64,000 nt of DNA from a virus. Its lineage: Duplodnaviria > Caudoviricetes. The translations under genes and the position numbers were made by a program. Positions 26,770-47,859 of the stretch are shown piece by piece. How positions within the stretch are numbered: the stretch's first letter is position 1; each line of letters opens with the position of its first letter. The stretch covers positions 498 to 64,497 of the IMG/VR virus record IMGVR_UViG_3300036944_001223; one strand, written 5' to 3'. Below the pieces are notes generated by a model. The model made no database searches. It had not been told where the DNA came from and saw only the letters and a list, made by a program, of their open reading frames with translations.

Positions 26770-28494
26770 CTAACCAGTAACTGCGCCGCTGTATGGCTTG
26801 GCGTAAACAGTTACAAGAACGTAGTTATTCGGTACAACAGGGGAGCACTCAAATGTTATTCGAGTAACATCACCCTCTAGCGTAGCGGAAATATTTCGGT
26901 AAGCCGGATTTGTTGCGTCCCCAGCTAAAACACCAGGACCTTCAGGCTCTGCTCTGGCCAACTCTTTTAAAGTTGAGTCAGTAATGCTAATGGCTCGAGA
27001 CAATAATAGAGGGTTGCCTTTTTGCCCGCGTAGAACATCAACAGCTGTGCGTACATTTCTGACTGTGAAATCTAATGCAGCGCCGGTTGACTGCTCAACA
27101 AGATTATACTTGTCATTAGCAAGCCAAGTGCTGATAGATTGTACTACCTTAAAGCCTTCATCGGTATCTTCAACACAGAGAACACCGCCAAGAATTAAAG
27201 GATCCGTATCGGTAGGATTAAGCAGTTTACGCTCAAAGCCTCTAACAGTCATAACCTTGTTAGTCAAAGGCGTGCCGGGATTAACTCCAGCAAACATAGC
27301 CGCAATTAACGCGGCGGTCAGGTATGGCGGCTTTAATACAAGCTCACCAGTTACTGCGTCATTGTCGTAGTAACCAATATGAACCAGTGATGTTCTTGGG
27401 CTGCCTAACGCTTTCGCCGCATCTAATGCCTGAGCATCAGTCGAAGCTGCTACCATACCACAGACTGCACGCCTTTCACGTCGCAAAACAGTGGAGCACA
27501 ATTGAACGTGTGCATCAGCCATTGCATGAATCGCCGCATCGCCTGAAACGGGGCAAACCCACTGTACGTCTGCAGTTTGCAACTTAGCAAAAGCGTCTGA
27601 CCAGTCCAGGTTAGTCGTAGTTCCTTCGGATCCGCCGGCAAGATATGTGAATGGAATATTTGCAGGAAGAGTGCCTGAGGCATCAACCCGTGTAGCTACT
27701 ACCATGTTTGCAGCATACGTGTTGAACCATTTCACTAAAGCTTGCAAATCAGCTCTCACGGCATAAGCGGCAGTTTTGCAATCTTGATCAGTTATAAAAT
27801 CCAAACCATTTAACGCATTTACATTTTCGCTACTATCTAACGCTGTAGCGCTAAAGCCTGCGATCGTATTGATTTTATCAACAATAGAGCCAACTGTTTT
27901 AAATGAAGCTAAATCAATAGTTGCAACCGCCGTAGCAGCAGGCGCATTAATAACAACTGTCGTAGCTGTAACTGTTACGGTAGCGGTAGCTTCGGCGCCG
28001 TCATAAAGAACACTAAAAGCCCCGCGCCCAATATTGTCAGCGTATGCATAACCGTTATCAACATCTGACTGCACAGTCACTTTTTTGCCGACAACTGTAC
28101 CGCTTTCAATTTTTACTTTAGTCAGATTATCTGACAAGCCATAATTTGCAGAGGCTAAATTAATAACCGCTGCAGGGACAGAGTTCTGCAGAGCTAAAAC
28201 AGCTTGAGTTGCAGGATTAACCCGTACAGCATTGACAACTGAAGGGGCGCCGGTTTCTGCCGACGGGGAGAACGCCTTTAAAACAGCTGTCAGCAATTCA
28301 CCGCTGCGAAGAACTGCTTTAGCTTCTTCTGGATTGCCAAAGCGCAAAACCGTCTTAGGCTGTCCGCCAGTTGATTTGCCAACATATGCTAAGGCATTGC
28401 CGACTGTTAGATTCTGGTTTTGCATTGCATCGTCATTGACCACGCTAGCAGTTGTGGGCGTAACCAGAAGCTGCCCATTGAAAAATACAGACAT
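26770..28494 (-). CDS. Tail sheath protein
   Basis: 574 aa; G.S.GG.P, L.SGEL..A, LAGGS.GT, PLTNK, VVQSISTW, P..P.NY.LV. Confidence 0.9.
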   Translation of the reverse strand: MSVFFNGQLLVTPTTASVVNDDAMQNQNLTVGNALAYVGKSTGGQPKTVLRFGNPEEAKAVLRSGELLTAVLKAFSPSAETGAPSVVNAVRVNPATQAVLALQNSVPAAVINLASANYGLSDNLTKVKIESGTVVGKKVTVQSDVDNGYAYADNIGRGAFSVLYDGAEATATVTVTATTVVINAPAATAVATIDLASFKTVGSIVDKINTIAGFSATALDSSENVNALNGLDFITDQDCKTAAYAVRADLQALVKWFNTYAANMVVATRVDASGTLPANIPFTYLAGGSEGTTTNLDWSDAFAKLQTADVQWVCPVSGDAAIHAMADAHVQLCSTVLRRERRAVCGMVAASTDAQALDAAKALGSPRTSLVHIGYYDNDAVTGELVLKPPYLTAALIAAMFAGVNPGTPLTNKVMTVRGFERKLLNPTDTDPLILGGVLCVEDTDEGFKVVQSISTWLANDKYNLVEQSTGAALDFTVRNVRTAVDVLRGQKGNPLLLSRAISITDSTLKELARAEPEGPGVLAGDATNPAYRNISATLEGDVTRITFECSPVVPNNYVLVTVYAKPYSGAVTG

Positions 28495-28505
28495 TTTTAC
28501 CTCGC

Positions 28506-28724
28506 TTATGCGGGTCGGTTAATAAAAGCCTTAAAACGCTCGTCGAATTCCGACTCGCTAGCTTTGAGGCGATTTGCTCGTCTCTCATCTGCTTCAAAGC
28601 CTGAGATTAACTCAACACGCTTTTCTTTAGTTGAAAGACGAATGCAAAAATCCCTCAAAGTGAGCTCTATTTCAGGGGCACTTTGAAGGGCTGTAGACTT
28701 TTGAGATTTTTGAACTGTTGCCAT
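28506..28724 (-). CDS. Small hypothetical protein upstream of sheath
   Basis: In operon; RBS and tight spacing. Confidence 0.65.
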   Translation of the reverse strand: MATVQKSQKSTALQSAPEIELTLRDFCIRLSTKEKRVELISGFEADERRANRLKASESEFDERFKAFINRPA

Positions 28725-28726
28725 AG

Positions 28727-29557
28727 TTATGTACCCGCAGTAATTTCAACGTCATTAATTTTATTAACTCTTCCGCCGACTCTTACCGGCGCTATGCAGG
28801 AAAAGCTGCACACTACTTGATACATGTTCACGTCATATTCGCCGTTGATTGCATCAACATCTTGCATCCCGACGTTTACTTGCTCAATGCCATTGGATGA
28901 TAAAACGGTAAGATTGGCGACAATGATCCGTCTTAAAGCTTTTCTCAACTCTATTCGTTCATCACTGTTAGTAGACCATGCCACTATCGACAACTGCACG
29001 TCAGCAAGCCACCCCTCTGACTCATACCAGTCTAGATCAATAGCATCATACTCATCACCGCCTATGTCTTCGCCAATACCTCGGGCTCCAGAGGTTTCGC
29101 TCAGCATATGTAAAGTGATCAATGGGAATCGCAGCTGCTGCTCAAGCGATGGCGGGGCAGTATATACTTGCACGTATCCGATATCGGCAATAATGTTCCC
29201 GCGTTCAACTTCGACTTTCATCCCCGCTTCTATTCTTTCTCTCATTAATGAGAGCACGTCGGTAGAATGCTCTTCATATGTTGAAGTTGGAGTACCAGAA
29301 GCTGTAACGCTAGAATTCCATGCAACCCCATCAAAGTAATAAACCTTGTAAAAAGCCATAACTTCATTAATGAGAAATGCGGTGTCGAGAAAAACCTTAT
29401 CGTCACCCTCGTATGCGACTATTGCGCTGCTATCATTCTCATCAACAAACGAGTCTGAGCCCTTCCTTAACACTCTCCAATACATGGATCCTGCTGGCGG
29501 GCTAATGAACACTCTTAATGCGTTGCCAATTGGTACTGGCTGAATCATTGCAATCAT
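28727..29557 (-). CDS. Tail terminator/completion-like protein
   Basis: Upstream of sheath; FPLITL, LSIVAWS.N.DER..L; start moved to ATG 29557. Confidence 0.6.
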   Translation of the reverse strand: MIAMIQPVPIGNALRVFISPPAGSMYWRVLRKGSDSFVDENDSSAIVAYEGDDKVFLDTAFLINEVMAFYKVYYFDGVAWNSSVTASGTPTSTYEEHSTDVLSLMRERIEAGMKVEVERGNIIADIGYVQVYTAPPSLEQQLRFPLITLHMLSETSGARGIGEDIGGDEYDAIDLDWYESEGWLADVQLSIVAWSTNSDERIELRKALRRIIVANLTVLSSNGIEQVNVGMQDVDAINGEYDVNMYQVVCSFSCIAPVRVGGRVNKINDVEITAGT

Positions 29558-31112: not shown

Positions 31113-32207
31113 TTAGCATACCATCATACGGATTCCGTTGATCTGACTCATCAGACCGCCGTTTGATCCTTCTGGGCCATTCAGTACATGCTCAATAGTC
31201 TCTTCATACTTAGCCATATCGACTGATATAGACTGAGTTAATCCATCGGCGCTTATGGATCCTGATTGTGGCAAATAGGCATCAGCAATGACCTTCATAA
31301 CCGCTTTTTTCTTAATCACATCAAGAAGCTCAGGATATTTATTTTCAACATCAGAAAGGCCTGCAGTATAAGTAAGCTGCAGCATAAACGGAATGCTGCG
31401 GCTGCCGGCCAATGCCGTCATAATAAAGGCGTTCATCGTCGTGAATATAGCAGGAGAACTGGGCACTAATCTCACATGTCCATATTTTGCATCAATTCTG
31501 ATCCAGTCATTTGGCACATCAAAAAAACCAGTATCTTGCGACGGATAAGCAAATCGCAACCTTTCCACTGAAATTATTGGGCGTTGACGAGTGACAAAAT
31601 AACCCCACTTCTCAAAGTGGAACATATCCGGAGTATAGTCGTAAGCCGGATCCACGCCGTAGGCCATTCCTTCTAACTCATCAATTTGAGCTTGTGTCGG
31701 GTTAAGAGGGAAAAATCGAGTCGGAACTAGCGGAACCCTTAGAGTATGAGAGATCTCTGACTCAGCGGCGCGTATTTTGTCCCAAATATAATCGTCAGAA
31801 ACCTTAATGTTCTGAAATACTCCTGCGGCAGCGGCCATGAGTCGATCTTCGCGCATCTCGTTAACAACAAGATCTTTGATGAATAACGATGTTCTAGTCG
31901 GAGAGAACAACGTTTCAACTGTTAGGCTAAACCGCTTAATGCCGATAGCTGGCCCCTGAAGTATCAGCATTGACTGCCCCGCAGGAATTGGCGTAGTTTC
32001 TTCCGAGCTTAGATTTATTGCCACAATCCCTGACAACCATTTAGCACCGGCATCGGCATCGGTCAGCGTCTTTACTGGCAGATACTCCTGCTTGCCATCC
32101 ATAGAGTATATGCGGGCCTGAACAACCCCAGTAATAGGTATTGGATTACCGTTTATAAGAACTTTTTGAATAATTTTAGCGGGATCGCCAGCAATAATAG
32201 TGCTCAT
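31113..32207 (-). CDS. Head-tail adaptor with extra N-terminal beta domain
   Basis: RPIISVE, W...D...G, YTAGL, SISADGL.QS. Confidence 0.7.
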   Translation of the reverse strand: MSTIIAGDPAKIIQKVLINGNPIPITGVVQARIYSMDGKQEYLPVKTLTDADAGAKWLSGIVAINLSSEETTPIPAGQSMLILQGPAIGIKRFSLTVETLFSPTRTSLFIKDLVVNEMREDRLMAAAAGVFQNIKVSDDYIWDKIRAAESEISHTLRVPLVPTRFFPLNPTQAQIDELEGMAYGVDPAYDYTPDMFHFEKWGYFVTRQRPIISVERLRFAYPSQDTGFFDVPNDWIRIDAKYGHVRLVPSSPAIFTTMNAFIMTALAGSRSIPFMLQLTYTAGLSDVENKYPELLDVIKKKAVMKVIADAYLPQSGSISADGLTQSISVDMAKYEETIEHVLNGPEGSNGGLMSQINGIRMMVC

Positions 32208-32220
32208 ATTAATTCCTACA

Positions 32221-32246
32221 AAAAAGGCCGCGATTAAGCGGCCTTT
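32221..32246 (-). terminator. Intrinsic terminator
   Basis: AAAGGCCGC/GCGGCCTTT stem with T run. Confidence 0.75.
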
Positions 32247-32274
32247 AAAGATAATAACAGGCCGTAGCCTTGCG

Positions 32275-32475
32275 TTATTCTGACGCGATCAAGCCAGCGT
32301 CGCGCAAACTCGTTAGTAAGGCGTTAAATTCTGCTTGTGTCGGCACGTCAGCGGCATCAGGAACATGCACACCTTGCCGAGTAGCTTGGCCAACCAAGAA
32401 ATCACCAACCTTATGATGATTGGTGCCAATATTGAGTTTGTTCAATAATTTTTTAGCGGTTTCAATTACAGTCAT
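32275..32475 (-). CDS. Head fibre/decoration-like protein
   Basis: PTQAEFNALLTSLRDAGLIA trimerisation-type C-terminus. Confidence 0.65.
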   Translation of the reverse strand: MTVIETAKKLLNKLNIGTNHHKVGDFLVGQATRQGVHVPDAADVPTQAEFNALLTSLRDAGLIASE

Positions 32476-32484
32476 GATGTTCTC

Positions 32485-32862
32485 CTAGAAAACTTCACCA
32501 GTATCGTCTTCAGTTTCAGTTTCAGCGGCAGGCGCATCAGCCAGTAATTTAGCCGCTTCATCTTCCAAGGCTTGTTTATTAGCTGCTTCTTCAGCTGCTA
32601 ATTTTTCAGCTTCGGCTTTTTCAGCTTTTTCTCTAGCTTTTTTTTGAGCGCTAGTTTCGGGCTTTGTTTCGACTTTTACGCGAATAGCGTCAGGAATCTC
32701 TTCATCCTCAGCTAATCGGTATCCAGGCACGGCTAGAAACTGCTCTAGCAACTCATCATTTTCGATATGCTCAGAGATAGATAGCACATCAAGAGTTGGA
32801 TGAAATGCAACACCGTTGATCATAGTGATCAAGCCGGGCAATTCTTTAATAACATGGCGCAT
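32485..32862 (-). CDS. Hypothetical protein downstream of capsid gene
   Basis: INGVAF, FLAVPGY, acidic/Ala tail; GGGAG RBS before ATG 32862. Confidence 0.65.
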   Translation of the reverse strand: MRHVIKELPGLITMINGVAFHPTLDVLSISEHIENDELLEQFLAVPGYRLAEDEEIPDAIRVKVETKPETSAQKKAREKAEKAEAEKLAAEEAANKQALEDEAAKLLADAPAAETETEDDTGEVF

Positions 32863-40144: not shown

Positions 40145-41293
40145 TTAGCTTAACGTTTCAAGCAACCAGTCTGAAAATTCTTTATCATCATTCTCAGCCA
40201 TTTCAATTGTAGGAACCCATCTTCCCCTGCAATGTGGGTGAACTAGGCCAGCAGGCAAGTGCCACATCTCATCTTGACTTCTAGGCACCAACAACGATCC
40301 AACCCTTTTACGCGGAGAGGCCGAACGTCCTATATTATTTTTGCCGGGCCAGATTTGCGTCTCTGGATTTTTAACCGCAGCAGTAGGTGAAACTACTTCA
40401 GCAATTACACCATCAATTCTTTTGCAAAAGGAGCATGCATTTTGATATTGCTCCACACGTTTTACTCGAGTTCCCGGCTTTAGGCTGGCAATATAACCCT
40501 GCGTCTGTGCCTCGCCCAATTCAGTTACAGCAATTCTGCGCCAGTCTCTATTTAATACCCCGAACTGATCGAGCAACTTTGACTCAAGAGAAGGGCTAGC
40601 AACTCCAGCCGGCTGAGATTGCGTCGACTCAATATGCTGTAAAATTGTGTTTTGCATTTTATGACGCACAGAGTCAGTAAGTGCTCTGACATTTTCTGCC
40701 GCCTTTACTCTGGCAAAGCCAATCTGTGATTTTAATTGCGCTGACAGGTTAAATTGCGATGTAGCTGTAGAGGCTAGTGACGGGAGCGCGGCTAGAATTA
40801 AATTAGCCTGAGCTATGGTAGCGTCAGCCGTCATGTGAGCTTGAACTTTGCCCATCATCGAGGCTTTTGTTGTAGCCCACTCGCTTTCTGTTAATAGTTC
40901 GTCGATAGGTAAATAGCGCTGCACAACATAATCAACGGCCATCATATGATCGTCCAGTGTCCACTTGCTCACTGGTAATGCTTGCAGATAAAGCTTAACA
41001 AGATCCAGCTCTGCTTTTCCCCACTGTCTCATCATGCCGGGCTTATGTTCCGGCATAATTGCATCAGGGTTGTGATAAACCCCACTTTCCCATTCAATTA
41101 GCTGTTTTTTCACCTCAGCCAAACGATCTAGCCCGCGCTGAGTAAACATTTCAATTAAACGGCGGATCAACTTGCTTTCATGAGGCTTCCAAATACCTTC
41201 ATCATCTTCATGGGATGATTTGCAAATAAGCTCAAGCGCATCATCAGTAACGCGAGCCGATAGGTTTGAAATGTCGAGAAATAACGGATCCAT
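40145..41293 (-). CDS. Minor head morphogenesis protein (SPP1 gp7/Mu gpF-like)
   Basis: RDWRRIAVTE, CSFC, HPHCRG. Confidence 0.85.
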   Translation of the reverse strand: MDPLFLDISNLSARVTDDALELICKSSHEDDEGIWKPHESKLIRRLIEMFTQRGLDRLAEVKKQLIEWESGVYHNPDAIMPEHKPGMMRQWGKAELDLVKLYLQALPVSKWTLDDHMMAVDYVVQRYLPIDELLTESEWATTKASMMGKVQAHMTADATIAQANLILAALPSLASTATSQFNLSAQLKSQIGFARVKAAENVRALTDSVRHKMQNTILQHIESTQSQPAGVASPSLESKLLDQFGVLNRDWRRIAVTELGEAQTQGYIASLKPGTRVKRVEQYQNACSFCKRIDGVIAEVVSPTAAVKNPETQIWPGKNNIGRSASPRKRVGSLLVPRSQDEMWHLPAGLVHPHCRGRWVPTIEMAENDDKEFSDWLLETLS

Positions 41294-41318
41294 ATAATAA
41301 TTTATCCTCACAATAATG

Positions 41319-41509
41319 AAAAAACCCAGCTACTTTGCAGCAGCTGGGCAGTGCCTTCATACGGCTACCGATCACTCGGCTGTCGGCTGCGCTTTGCGCT
41401 ATACCCGCTCTCTCTTGTTTCCAAAAAAGCACCATGAGCGCTCATGGTTGGGATTACCCGGCTATTTACCCCTAGCCGGCCGCTCCGGGTCTAAACGTTA
41501 TGCGGGGCC
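41319..41509 (-). ncRNA. Candidate structured RNA ending in an intrinsic terminator
   Basis: GC-rich intergenic gap with consecutive hairpins, three GNRA loops and G-U pairs valid only on the minus strand. Confidence 0.6.
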
Positions 41510-41776
41510 TTATTCTTTTGCTCCGCTTGGGATACCGATGTAACGCTTCTTTCCATCTTGGTTTTGCACGATCAAGCCATCTTCACCGTGTTGCAAAACT
41601 GAATACTTTTGAGGTGTTCGCTTCTTGAAACCGCTTATTTCATGCCATTTTAGCTTATGAGTATTACCCTCATGCTCAACATGGCAACCATGCTTTCCAG
41701 CGCTTAAAACTTTACCATGCACGGGCTCGCCAGCTTTATGGAAGAATACTTCATCACCAGGATATGCGCGACTCAT
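41510..41776 (-). CDS. Hypothetical protein (SH3/KOW-like)
   Basis: PGDEVFF, GKV.SAG.HG; ATGA coupling. Confidence 0.65.
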   Translation of the reverse strand: MSRAYPGDEVFFHKAGEPVHGKVLSAGKHGCHVEHEGNTHKLKWHEISGFKKRTPQKYSVLQHGEDGLIVQNQDGKKRYIGIPSGAKE

Positions 41777-42012
41777 TTTAGCTCCTCACCTAACTTAAAC
41801 TGAAATAAATCAGGATTATCAGGATAGACCAAGGGCCTAAACGTACCCTCTAAAGCAGAAAAAAAATCAAAAACTATATCAAGAGCCACATGCTTAGTCT
41901 GAACTTTAAACTCACCAGATGGATCCCCGATATATACTGGCACGCCATAATAGGAACCGTGATGAGTGAATCCTAACTCTTTAGCTTTTTTTACTGTGAT
42001 ATAACCCAGCAT
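41773..42012 (-). CDS. Hypothetical phage protein
   Basis: GFTHHGSYYGVPVY; coupled in operon. Confidence 0.65.
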   Translation of the reverse strand: MLGYITVKKAKELGFTHHGSYYGVPVYIGDPSGEFKVQTKHVALDIVFDFFSALEGTFRPLVYPDNPDLFQFKLGEELK

Positions 42013-42013
42013 T

Positions 42014-42370
42014 TCAAGCCTCTATCTCTGGCAGATCTACAGTTTTACCAGCAAGAATATGAGTGCAATCACCCAAAAACTGAATCTTCCCATCAGTAAC
42101 AAATGAGTGACATATTCCACACTCAAAACCGTCTCTTTCTTCATCAGGATTTTCTTCAAAATAAGTACACCAACATGGTTCACCTTTTTCCCAGTGTTTA
42201 GCAAAATGCCCGTAACTAGCTAATATAGAAGGCTGAAATGTTGGCCTGTCAAAATTGCCATTGAAAGACCATGCTGGTCCGCTGGATCCTCCAATGTTTA
42301 ACGAATGGTACATTTTGCAACCTGGACATTTAAATGATGCTATATTTTTAGTTATTTTAACTTTGCTCAT
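42014..42370 (-). CDS. Zn-binding phage protein (DUF6527-like)
   Basis: CPGC..YH, W.FNG...RPTF.PSI, CHSFVTDG.IQFL.DCTH.LAG.TV.LP. Confidence 0.75.
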   Translation of the reverse strand: MSKVKITKNIASFKCPGCKMYHSLNIGGSSGPAWSFNGNFDRPTFQPSILASYGHFAKHWEKGEPCWCTYFEENPDEERDGFECGICHSFVTDGKIQFLGDCTHILAGKTVDLPEIEA

Positions 42371-44088
42371 GGCTCTGGCTTCCAGATTGGCAACCCAAAA
42401 GACTTGGCCATTTGATCGCCATCATCTTCTTGATCTTGCTTGTCATCAGGTTTGCTTTCAGGATCTTCTTCGTTAGAAGATTTGTTTTCATCTTTAGGAT
42501 CTTGTTGGTCTTTAGGATCTTGCCCAAAATCTCCGCCGCCATCTGGATTGCCGTAGTCCTCGCTGGACGATGCTATTGATTGCATATACGCGCCCATTAA
42601 ATTCTGGTTCAACGGAGCGTTGTTTAGCACCTCGTCTTTGATCTCATCCCATCCGCGAACCTTTCGAGCTTCACCCCATGTTAGCAGCGTAGTTTCTTCA
42701 TCCCACTGTTGTTTTGCATCGGTTTCGTCGAGACCTGACCAGCGGAATAAGTATTTATCACTAAACTCAGCAACAACGTAGTCAGAAAAAACATCTTCAA
42801 AATAAGACAGAAGAGGGCGAAGGCCCTTATCTTTAGAGTTAATCAGCTTCTCTTCTGTATCCGATCCAGATAACGAGCTTGCGCCATTGGTGAAACTCTC
42901 GAAATTTATCTCATCAGGAGCCATGCCGTAGATCGCGCAAATAATTGATGTTAAAAACGTCATCCATTTGGAGAACATCATTTCATTTACGTCGACACCA
43001 AAATTCTCGAAACTTGCTTTTGACTCTTGGTTTTTACTGACCATTACAGGCAGAGTCCAAGCGTTATTGATCCCCTTCACCATCGAGTTCCAATAACGCT
43101 TAAAGGCGCTCATATCGTCTTGGCTATAATCACCAGACAAGTGAAGTAAGCCCTTAGGGATCGCATTGGAGTCAAAATATTTGTTGTTGTACGTCATGGC
43201 ATTCAGGAAGCCGGTCACAACTTTTACTAATAGCTCTGTTTCTGACATGCCGTAGCCGCCGACCATGACATCAGTACGCGGGTTCCTTGGCACATAGATC
43301 AGGTCGTCATACGTGTAAGCCGCTCTGATTTGGCCTTGGGCAACCTGCAAGGCAAATAGTTCGTCATCGCCTTGGTAGCCTTCCTCATTACACAGTCGTA
43401 TCGTCGCGCCATCGACAGCATACATGCCGTCCATCCCTTTAGACTTATCGCGCTTGTATTCAGTCTCGATCGCAGCGCTATCCATTGTTAGGCTGTCTCG
43501 AGTAAGTTTGGCCACAAAGTTAGAGAAATTATCACGTTTAAGTCTTGCGCGTTGACGCGGGTTATTTTCCCATCCGCAATTTGTAAAAAAGCTTTCAAGC
43601 AGAACAATACTCTTTTTTTCCGCCTCACCTAATTTCGCAGAGGGATCTTTCGACTTGATATTAAATCCTGGTCCTTTACCGCCTTCTGATACGCGGCAAA
43701 AACGCCTTAATTGGCGTTGGCGAGTGAGTATTACAGCGGAAAGAATCGGCGTCTGATCGACCATTGTTCGCATCATATCAAACGAGAATGCACTATTTTT
43801 CTCGTACCACTCACCCATCATTTGGACGCGGGTATCATCGAGATATAACGATTGCATACCGGGCTGCCCAGTGGCGATAGCGCGGCTAGGAAAAGGGATC
43901 ACATTGGGCTTAGATAAAGCTTTAGTAAACTGCTGATCCTGATATTGCTCCGCAACATAGCGGACCAGTTCCGTCATATTGGGAACAGTCGAGGGCATCG
44001 CGTCTTTTTGAGCTTCGCGCAATGCATCCTGCCGCTCATCTTGTGGCGCTGCAGGGTTATGTGAAACTTCTAAGGCTTTATCTGTCAT
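42367..44088 (-). CDS. Portal protein
   Basis: RDSLT.D, VDGATIR, PRNP, YGMS..E, F...AIPKGLL, M.F..W, YG..PDEI, SKDKGL.PLL, EAR...G. Confidence 0.9.
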   Translation of the reverse strand: MTDKALEVSHNPAAPQDERQDALREAQKDAMPSTVPNMTELVRYVAEQYQDQQFTKALSKPNVIPFPSRAIATGQPGMQSLYLDDTRVQMMGEWYEKNSAFSFDMMRTMVDQTPILSAVILTRQRQLRRFCRVSEGGKGPGFNIKSKDPSAKLGEAEKKSIVLLESFFTNCGWENNPRQRARLKRDNFSNFVAKLTRDSLTMDSAAIETEYKRDKSKGMDGMYAVDGATIRLCNEEGYQGDDELFALQVAQGQIRAAYTYDDLIYVPRNPRTDVMVGGYGMSETELLVKVVTGFLNAMTYNNKYFDSNAIPKGLLHLSGDYSQDDMSAFKRYWNSMVKGINNAWTLPVMVSKNQESKASFENFGVDVNEMMFSKWMTFLTSIICAIYGMAPDEINFESFTNGASSLSGSDTEEKLINSKDKGLRPLLSYFEDVFSDYVVAEFSDKYLFRWSGLDETDAKQQWDEETTLLTWGEARKVRGWDEIKDEVLNNAPLNQNLMGAYMQSIASSSEDYGNPDGGGDFGQDPKDQQDPKDENKSSNEEDPESKPDDKQDQEDDGDQMAKSFGLPIWKPEP

Positions 44089-47819: not shown

Positions 47820-47831
47820 TACCAATAAATA

Positions 47832-47859
47832 AAAGGCCACTCAAGCGAGTGGCCTTTTT
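47832..47859. terminator. Bidirectional terminator
   Basis: AAAGGCCACTC-aagc-GAGTGGCCTTT between convergent genes. Confidence 0.85.

Follow-up and report, generated by a model that had tools for sequence, protein, structure and literature searches.

The window studied here, i.e. the whole stretch of 64,000 nucleotides that was analysed, comes from a 64.5-kb IMG/VR virus record estimated to be 70% complete, and it carries on its minus strand a structured RNA of about 165 bases, lying in a 216-nt gap between the stop codon of an 88-aa open reading frame (ORF) and the ATG of a 382-aa gene. We find that this RNA belongs to a family of about 150-190 nt, built of five helices and three pseudoknots, which occurs in the late operons of unrelated phage lineages, at least two and probably a third. 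That the family and its fold are real we regard as nearly certain, and model searches indicate that both are new and absent from Rfam, where newness refers to family and fold and not to the type of function. Regarding the function, we tentatively propose a new class of RNA that may act via its own fold on a universal target, either as a self-cleaving ribozyme or as an RNA-only modifier of host RNA polymerase, and that would have spread as a portable module among unrelated Proteobacteria phages. An earlier note, made from the letters of the window, had pointed to a multi-hairpin RNA or cis-regulator at 41319-41509, and the sequence that it quoted is indeed found there. The core of the RNA is placed as follows.

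41346-41511, minus strand: structured RNA core, from the 5' leader through helix P5 and the first bases beyond it, as delimited by covariance model R1

The minus-strand RNA of 41294-41512 folds with a minimum free energy of -87.3 kcal/mol versus -66.9 +/- 4.4 in 200 dinucleotide shuffles (z -4.67, with 0 of 200 shuffles as stable), and the plus strand of the same region reaches only z -1.67, with 12 of 200 shuffles as stable. Covariation was assessed on A3, a MAFFT alignment of 21 copies built from sequence only, from which R1 with its 31 pairs was made; the pseudoknots PK1, PK2 and PK3 are absent from R1, and therefore the alignment was not fitted to those helices. In A3 the five nested helices are paired in 85.9% of cells versus 66.0% in shuffles, compensatory changes occur at 26 of the 31 pairs, and 0 of 500 shuffles reach any of these measures; RNAalifold alone recovers P1-P4 on the same alignment. 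When the 39 distinct sequences of the family set are taken with PK1 and PK3 included (40 pairs in seven helices), 88.2% of cells are paired versus 67.6% in shuffles and 36 of the 40 pairs are compensatory, which 0 of 500 shuffles match, with slid-helix controls on this set pairing in 31-52%. G-U pairs account for 149 of 1476 paired cells, and the opposite strand would therefore pair only 78.1%. The fold z, the covariation and the G-U cells thus agree on a strand-specific, selected multi-hairpin RNA with pseudoknots, as had been suggested from the letters, and the covariation that had been named as the check in collected homologues is present. In addition, a close DNA relative (run X4) differs from the window at 27 places over 40601-41786 (1186 aligned bases) and at none in 41259-41575, where about 10 would be expected by simple arithmetic.

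The contrary explanation, that there is no RNA here and that the conservation belongs to a DNA-level site such as a pac site or protein-binding repeat, to a small coding gene or to a chance structure, is already largely refuted and deserves next to no credence. It can point to an antisense hypothetical coding sequence (CDS) annotated across the element in Pseudomonas phage Touem01, and to the open antisense frame that GC-rich members often have. Against it stand the z value of the fold, the G-U cells, which make the helices strand-specific, and the compensatory changes, together with the lengths of the RNA, which spread over all modulo-3 classes (11, 20 and 9 of 40), and the reading frames, among which no conserved sense frame was found and none is open in more than 6 of 40 members.

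The family was assembled through proteins as well as through the RNA. A search of viral contigs with the 382-aa protein gave 17 loci, and an alignment of 14 such proteins gave 224 confirmed relatives in viral contigs, of which the best 80 were kept, and 27 loci in bacterial and archaeal genome contigs, including a Microvirga prophage. The DNA upstream of the gene in several relatives holds the same hairpins with different stem sequences. Over the window and 99 related loci R1 gives 34 matches, all on the strand of the 382-aa gene, and 66 of the 100 sources have no R1 match in the DNA examined (up to 2.5 kb upstream). The window RNA itself scores 111.1 bits by cmsearch (E 9e-35, model positions 1-170 of 170) and is the single R1 match in the window; exactly one copy per genome is likewise present in five of five complete genomes of 90-96 kb. 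A scan of viral contigs with the hairpin pattern yielded 45 loci, where R1 confirms 16 full-length, 5 of them new and divergent, while blastn in distant mode with 41250-41560 found no match in phage and E. coli collections. Among seven named phage loci R1 finds the RNA at six, in Pseudomonas phages Dolphis, Jeremy and Touem01, Aeromonas phage ST4, Yersinia phage fHe-Yen8-01 and Escherichia phage ECML-606-1, and does not find it at the locus of Bordetella phage PHB04. None of the six carrier records annotates an RNA at the site; the CDS antisense to it in Touem01 (Touem01_00051, L179 2721-2966, minus strand) is probably spurious. No copy was seen outside phages and prophages.

From 5' to 3' the RNA runs through a leader, P1, P2, P3, an optional P4, the junction J4/5 and P5 with its inner hairpin P5a. 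Its parts in the window are the following.

41504-41508, minus strand: PK2 5' strand, GCCCC, 4 nt past the stop codon of the 88-aa ORF, pairing with the P2 loop
41481-41497, minus strand: P1 hairpin, in the window 4 base pairs CGUU/AGCG with a 9-nt loop
41486-41490, minus strand: PK1 5' strand, ACCCG, within the P1 loop
41458-41479, minus strand: P2 hairpin, 7-base-pair stem and 8-nt loop GGGGUAAA at 41465-41472
41431-41448, minus strand: P3 hairpin, 6 base pairs
41410-41429, minus strand: P4 hairpin, arms CUUUUUUG and CAAGAGAG with a GAAA tetraloop
41403-41407, minus strand: PK1 3' strand, CGGGU, directly after P4
41389-41392, minus strand: PK3 5' strand, GCGC in the conserved J4/5, pairing with 41361-41365 across P5
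41354-41386, minus strand: P5 domain, outer stem 41381-41386 with 41354-41359
41367-41380, minus strand: P5a inner hairpin, GUGA loop
41360-41366, minus strand: conserved P5 bulge, holding the PK3 3' strand

The nested helices are supported to different degrees. P2 is the firmest, with 99.6% of cells paired and both-side changes at all 7 pairs, and GGG opens its loop in 34 of 39 distinct members; P3 is paired in 95.3% (6 of 6 pairs compensatory), P1 in 93.8% (5 of 5, alignment A6) and P4 in 89.2% (6 of 6). An exact GNRA tetraloop caps P4 in 27 of the 39 members, and in five provirus members no convincing P4 hairpin is seen by eye, R1 aligning short non-GNRA loops there. P5 is paired in 70.5%, with 6 of 7 pairs compensatory and a register that is poorly aligned in some rows. 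Four hairpins read from the letters alone are accordingly conserved and covarying ones: CCGGCUA/UAGCCGG is P2, ACCAUG/CAUGGU is P3, the GAAA-capped pair of arms is P4 and GCCGA-GUGA-UCGGU is P5a. Two others dissolve in the comparison, namely a GCGC-AAA-GCGC hairpin, which is not conserved and whose second GCGC pairs instead with the P5 bulge in PK3, and a GCC-7nt-GGC hairpin, whose bases fall within the 3' strands of PK3 and P5. Conserved bases in junctions and loops are few, and strongly conserved.

Among the pseudoknots PK1 is the clearest. At least 5 contiguous complementary bases are present in 27 of 30 members versus 37% when other members' partners are used, 0 of 2000 partner permutations reach the observed sum, the columns are paired in 80.4% with 4 of 5 pairs compensatory, and more than 10 distinct compensated versions exist among the members. 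A CCC/GGG pairing, which had been suggested as able to close a three-way junction, is hence real as a pairing and forms this pseudoknot rather than a closing pair. A second guess, that a 5' CCCC might pair with the GGGG loop, is borne out as PK2, for which 8 of 2000 partner permutations do as well as the true partners; GCCCC:GGGGU is found in the window and L047, AGCCC:GGGCU in most members and AACCU:AGGUU in L084, and members in which P2 has a tetraloop also lack the 5' GCCC strand. Support for PK2 is weaker than that for PK1 and PK3. PK3 is paired in 88-91% (88.2% on A6) versus 16-41% in slid controls on alignment A4; its outer pair is correlated (G:Y, C:G, A:U or A:A), and its near-invariant C:G becomes G:C in five of five provirus members, as judged by eye. 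The contiguous-run permutation test is negative for PK3 (1922 of 2000 permutations reach the observed value), and because the helix has a bulged base, the case for PK3 is made by the column counts and the G:C flip.

The setting of the RNA was compared in three phage types, and in all of them it has the sense orientation of the late genes. In the first type, myoviruses of about 90 kb resembling PHB04 and Dolphis, it follows the portal gene or the accessory genes after the portal; in many loci it directly precedes the 382-aa gene, and in 12 loci ORFs or tRNA genes intervene. The second type consists of proviruses, where at locus L168 the RNA occupies the interval from a head protein gene (phrog_939) to the gene for the tail terminator protein, in the vicinity of major head protein, neck, sheath and protease genes. 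Two records of this type, proviruses G006 and G007, have hardly any proteins in common with G001, G003 or the window (BLASTP 1e-4), and at this threshold no phage protein is common to all carriers, there being only 2-5 weak and non-universal matches; the provirus copies retain PK2, P1, PK1, P2, P3, PK3 and P5. For the third type there are weak R1 matches of 21-22 bits in a lambdoid-like context (L208 448-591 and L222 6157-6300, both minus strand), in which an 8-base-pair PK1 and a 5-base-pair PK2 can be drawn by eye. L208 reads NinB, NinG, an unassigned 125-aa ORF, a terminator-like hairpin and the RNA, with an HNH endonuclease gene 10 nt further on; we tentatively take these matches as a third, shorter subgroup that lies before the HNH/terminase block at the head of the late genes. 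The 125-aa ORF sits where an antiterminator gene would be expected. The portal-operon setting that had been ascribed to the RNA thus holds for one phage type and fails for the other two.

In nearly all members of the main group a GC-rich hairpin stands 0-7 nt after P5, and in 13 of 30 members, the window included, it is followed by a U-rich tract (11 clear and 2 weak, read by eye). In the window this is the terminator at the 3' end of the RNA that had been predicted, a GC-rich hairpin followed by a U-tract as in intrinsic (Rho-independent) terminators, and it is one of the two best terminator-like sites within 36-51 kb.

41319-41349, minus strand: intrinsic terminator, hairpin 41349-41324 of 11 pairs (6 GC) with a GCAA loop, then U6

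A start codon follows the 3' end of the RNA at a distance of about 10-65 nt in several settings, namely the G001-type clade, Touem01, ST4, the Yersinia and E. coli phages, the proviruses and L208. Neither a promoter motif nor a U-tract accompanies the RNA in five provirus members or in the phages of Aeromonas, Yersinia and E. coli, where it fills the intergenic gap. The L020-L030 clade has a long hairpin about 60-90 nt after the RNA (e.g. L023 2414-2470), with a conserved loop motif ACUCC...UGG and a conserved foot in which AAGUCC pairs with GGGGCG; there is no U-tract after it, and therefore the RNA of this clade is probably about 230 nt long and continues into the gene, whose GTG start stands behind a Shine-Dalgarno sequence.

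The place of the RNA in its transcript can be judged in the relatives from an octamer, GTCGTGAC, for which five complete genomes have 48 sites on the strand of the late genes and 5 on the opposite one, versus 13 and 9 for a reversed-pattern control, and which recurs every 2-8 kb along the late region (examples are found in G001, L188-L192; G003, L193-L197; G002, G004 and G005; and at about 2965-3003 of L008). An ATG lies 11-17 nt downstream of it at 8 of 16 sites in G001 and 8 of 11 in G003, where 7 and 8 of these ATGs, respectively, open ORFs of at least 50 codons, and a -10-like CAYNAT stands between octamer and ATG. Strand bias and spacing suggest a phage-specific late promoter that would make leaderless mRNAs, and literature searches gave no description of the octamer in phages. 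It is found 16-17 nt before the 5' end of the RNA in L022, L023, L025, L026, L028, L030, L079 and L179 (Touem01), and further upstream in L031; in such loci the RNA would start the transcript, and PK2 would be formed with the bases at the extreme start. In Dolphis, Jeremy, L019, L079 and G003-type loci the octamer comes after the RNA, just before a leaderless ATG, and the RNA is therefore a trailer there. Both an upstream octamer and a downstream terminator are present in L079 and L031, the order in L031 being promoter motif, RNA, terminator and gene, with no second motif. The RNA is thus a 5' leader in some loci, a 3' trailer ending in a terminator in others, as in the window, and elsewhere no more than a spacer between cistrons. 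In the window the loose form of the octamer is not enriched (6 found versus 4.4 expected), and only a weak look-alike occurs, at 41297-41313 on the minus strand.

The earlier note had been unable to name an Rfam family, and covariance searches with the 4227 models of Rfam 15 likewise find none in the window or its relatives. Window 40800-42000 at E<=10 gives noise, the best hit being an L25 leader at 19.4 bits versus a cut-off of 34.1, on the terminator hairpin, and L023 2150-2500 at the same threshold also gives noise only. At the gathering threshold nothing falls on the element in the window, G007, G006 or G001, and 18 related loci show tRNAs and one anti-hemB match elsewhere, none on the element. 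The hammerhead, twister, twister-sister, pistol, hatchet, HDV-like and glmS classes are represented in Rfam, as is a packaging RNA model, and none of the ribozyme or packaging RNA models matches the element. ARAGORN finds no tRNA or tmRNA gene in the window, hence no tRNA-like or tmRNA identity of the element; the tRNA genes of relatives adjoin the RNA and never overlap it. The anti-hemB (Burkholderia RNA 7) match lies between the RNA and the 382-aa gene at L048 2404-2472 (plus strand; 50.6 bits versus a cut-off of 49.5), and G001 has an abiF RNA match at L189 14385-14436 (minus strand; 48.7 bits versus 37), about 2.6 kb upstream of the RNA and on the opposite strand.

What is observed, namely a conserved fold of constant orientation and copy number with variable neighbours and a variable place in the transcript, fits best with an activity residing in the RNA, and we put forward, as a possibility held with low confidence, a self-contained late RNA acting on a conserved host component or on itself. 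It would be transcribed with the late (virion) genes in their sense and in the window would make up the 3' part of the transcript of the portal-side genes, which would stop at the RNA's own intrinsic terminator; PK1, PK2 and PK3 would be the three tertiary helices that hold the fold. The activity would belong to the folded RNA and not to the control of one neighbouring gene, no phage-specific protein partner would be needed, and the most likely action would be binding of a conserved host component during late infection, a universal target that would make the RNA portable. Accumulation of the RNA, action in trans and the binding of a target are what we infer in this proposal. It is favoured by the promoter-like octamer upstream in some loci and the terminator after the RNA in 13 of 30 members, by the ORFs and tRNA genes that come between the RNA and the 382-aa gene, and by the unrelated provirus carriers; the varied contexts and neighbours across the three phage types argue against a regulator dedicated to the gpF-like and SNF2 genes. 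Several observations weigh against it. The gap-filling copies have no promoter motif or U-tract, and a free RNA would there need processing; the RNA mostly ends about 10-65 nt before the next start codon, as a cis-acting leader would; strict co-orientation with late genes is also predicted by cis models; and the putative promoter role of the octamer is drawn from strand bias and spacing only. A new-class self-cleaving ribozyme or processing element, which would cut the polycistronic late transcript at or near itself and so separate or re-end the flanking messages, we think possible, if on the unlikely side. A compact fold rich in pseudoknots, in which the conserved bases of junctions and loops are few but strongly kept, suits such an element, as do the intergenic sense position inside polycistronic phage transcripts, the flanking genes that differ by phage type and the carriers that share no protein partner, and prophage hammerheads have the same genomic habits in the consulted part of their description (PMC3088659). 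However, no Rfam ribozyme matches the element or any other place in the window, G001, G006 and G007, a catalytic core is not recognisable, and 150-190 nt with three pseudoknots exceeds most known self-cleavers.

A cis-acting leader or attenuator, in which the binding of a small molecule or host factor would set terminator read-through in the window or start-codon access in relatives, agrees with the constant sense orientation, with the short distance to the next start codon, with the layout of L031 and with a conserved "aptamer" whose downstream parts vary between a terminator, a long hairpin without U-tract and a bare Shine-Dalgarno sequence. On the other side, the RNA is a trailer before a promoter-like motif and a leaderless ATG in the Dolphis, Jeremy, L019, L079 and G003-type loci, the genes that follow it are of unrelated kinds (for a minor head protein, a tail terminator, an HNH endonuclease or tRNAs), and no copy outside phages and prophages was seen. 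In a crude RNAduplex test against shuffled arms no anti-terminator complementarity between the last 90 nt of the RNA and the 5' arm of the hairpin exceeded expectation in 29 members (z -1.75 to +2.1, centred near 0). We give a leader of this kind about the same credence as the ribozyme. An RNA-only processive antiterminator like HK022 put, whose nascent fold would bind host RNA polymerase and carry it past terminators, seems to us quite unlikely, in spite of several traits that fit: the RNA is strictly sense and single-copy, it lies near the start of the structural array in PHB04/Dolphis-like phages and L208 and in mid-array, between head and tail, in proviruses, it is promoter-proximal in 8-9 loci like putL, and no phage protein would be needed, which fits the spread among unrelated phages. 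A strong terminator directly follows it in 13 of 30 members, and the late strand of the window has further strong ones at 32910-32891, 26753-26730 and 26222-26202. Yet the many promoter-like motifs in the late region of relatives (48 versus 5 by strand) leave short units, that led by the RNA in G001 being only about 2 kb, so that processivity seems little needed, and 66 of the 100 sources had no RNA match in the DNA examined. Very improbable, finally, is a packaging (prohead) RNA (pRNA) like that of phi29, with PK1 and PK2 as intermolecular contacts building a ring on the portal. Covariation does not separate intra- from intermolecular loop-loop pairs, and in the phages of about 90 kb the RNA directly follows the portal or portal-side genes; but these phages encode a large terminase of the lambda gpA type, proviruses place the RNA between head-completion and tail genes and L208 before an HNH gene, no Rfam pRNA matches, and many relatives have no RNA.

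The window encodes a gpA-type large terminase and an integrase, and the genes nearest the RNA are these.

41510-41776, minus strand: 88-aa ORF, directly upstream of the RNA and not an obligate partner of it
40145-41293, minus strand: 382-aa gene, downstream of the RNA, with its ATG at 41293-41291 and GAGGA 11 nt upstream of the ATG
42367-44088, minus strand: portal gene, upstream of the RNA and on the same strand

A DUF6527 gene and a 79-aa gene also lie upstream on the minus strand. The 88-aa ORF has no Pfam or PHROG family at E<=0.001, and at E<=10 only a weak MobI match (E 0.19, below the MobI cut-off). By tblastn its family is present at loci with and without the RNA, sometimes far from it, and for this reason it was rejected as the partner of the RNA. 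The ORF represents a small protein family that is common across this phage group (50 loci with a tblastn match, some of them duplicate contigs) and has a conserved C-terminal motif RY(V/I)GIP. Homologues of the 382-aa protein carry the record annotations "minor head protein" or "particle associated protein"; the protein itself has no Phage_Mu_F match even at E<=10, and the description of this gene as gpF-like is thus not upheld, while the SNF2 gene expected downstream is found beyond it as a 1295-aa SNF2-type helicase. Nor is the gap that holds the RNA the largest of the structural cluster, as 28494-28727 and 32207-32485 are as large or larger in a list of ORFs of at least 100 aa. In the close relative of run X4, 22 other bases replace window 41787-42366, i.e. 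the 79-aa ORF and the DUF6527 gene, and the 88-aa ORF and the RNA are kept; the post-portal slot is therefore a site of variable cargo. Elsewhere it holds RelA/SpoT-like and Ser/Thr phosphatase genes (PHB04) or a GDSL lipase gene (Touem01). Strong intrinsic terminator-like sites for the minus strand are also present at 32910-32891, 26753-26730, 26222-26202 and 47831-47858, after large late genes and the terminase gene, so that terminators break up the long late region of the minus strand.

Some relatives have tRNA genes in the slot between the portal side and the 382-aa gene, instead of the RNA or just after it.

L007 60-817, L009 65-138, L010 2840-2912, L042 450-523, L050 2001-2076: slot tRNA genes
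L039 2340-2415, L047 1940-2099, L058 1607-2469, L074 1922-2002: slot tRNA genes, continued

Five of the slot tRNAs are tRNA-Met (CAU), and by their sequences those of L047 and L058, with a C1:A72 mismatch, and of L039, with a GGG/CCC anticodon stem, appear initiator-like; initiator-like tRNAs beside leaderless genes would be notable. In the Yersinia and E. coli phages (L180 2459-2520 and L181 2960-3020) the conserved N-terminus of the 382-aa homologue begins at ATT/ATC, preceded by a good Shine-Dalgarno sequence, and the start annotated in the records lies about 33-48 nt further downstream; a non-canonical start codon is likely for these homologues.

To our knowledge, few RNAs of about 150 nt fold with three covarying pseudoknots, and those that do have usually proved to be ribozymes, riboswitches or machines that bind core components of the cell. 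Among the carriers are phage isolates for which E. coli or Pseudomonas putida serves as laboratory host, and the function is therefore directly testable. The RNA also marks a gap in phage annotation, its region being unannotated or given a doubtful antisense ORF in public records, and the analysis points as well to an unusual promoter-like motif that apparently drives leaderless late genes in relatives.

How the RNA stands to known systems can be summarised as follows. Literature searches gave no description of it, and it may be one of the thousands of unnamed candidates of an IMG/VR screen by Fremin, Bhatt and Kyrpides in 2023, which reported 8,495 csRNAs (the screen's term) from DNA viruses, many lying ahead of genes or including a terminator; these share the data source and covariation as evidence with our RNA, and the available portion of the screen's text does not describe this motif (PMC10690425). 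The phi29 pRNA, which binds the portal and is needed for packaging, is likewise phage-encoded and of similar size, with covarying loop pairings, and in one phage type the likeness extends to a position next to the portal; the phages here are of another type with a gpA-type terminase, no model matches, and in two of the three phage types the RNA is not linked to the portal. Riboswitch classes combine one conserved aptamer with differing downstream expression parts. Our RNA resembles them in its conserved, pseudoknotted and junction-rich domain, its variable downstream hairpins, the terminator in the window and its sense position before genes, and differs from them in that it is also a 3' trailer ahead of a promoter-like motif, precedes virion genes of unrelated families, shows no switching complementarity in the test used and is so far confined to phages and prophages. 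Prophage hammerhead ribozymes occupy intergenic sense positions in polycistronic phage RNAs with variable flanking genes, and the self-cleaving ribozymes of prophages are, like our RNA, compact pseudoknotted folds with no protein partner, as far as the consulted part of the source goes (PMC3088659); from self-cleaving ribozymes our RNA is set apart by its larger size and by the missing model match and catalytic core. HK022 putL and putR are phage RNAs that act without a dedicated protein, and our RNA shares with them a sense position within the operon upstream of terminators and, in some relatives, closeness to the promoter. The put RNA counters pausing and termination through contact with the beta' zinc-binding domain of RNA polymerase. 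In the consulted part of the source, put is about 70 nt long, V-shaped with two stem-loops and located behind early promoters (PMC9378689), whereas our RNA measures 150-190 nt, folds into five helices and three pseudoknots, belongs to late operons and has no likeness to put in sequence or structure, so that the comparison with put raised at the outset does not amount to membership of that family.

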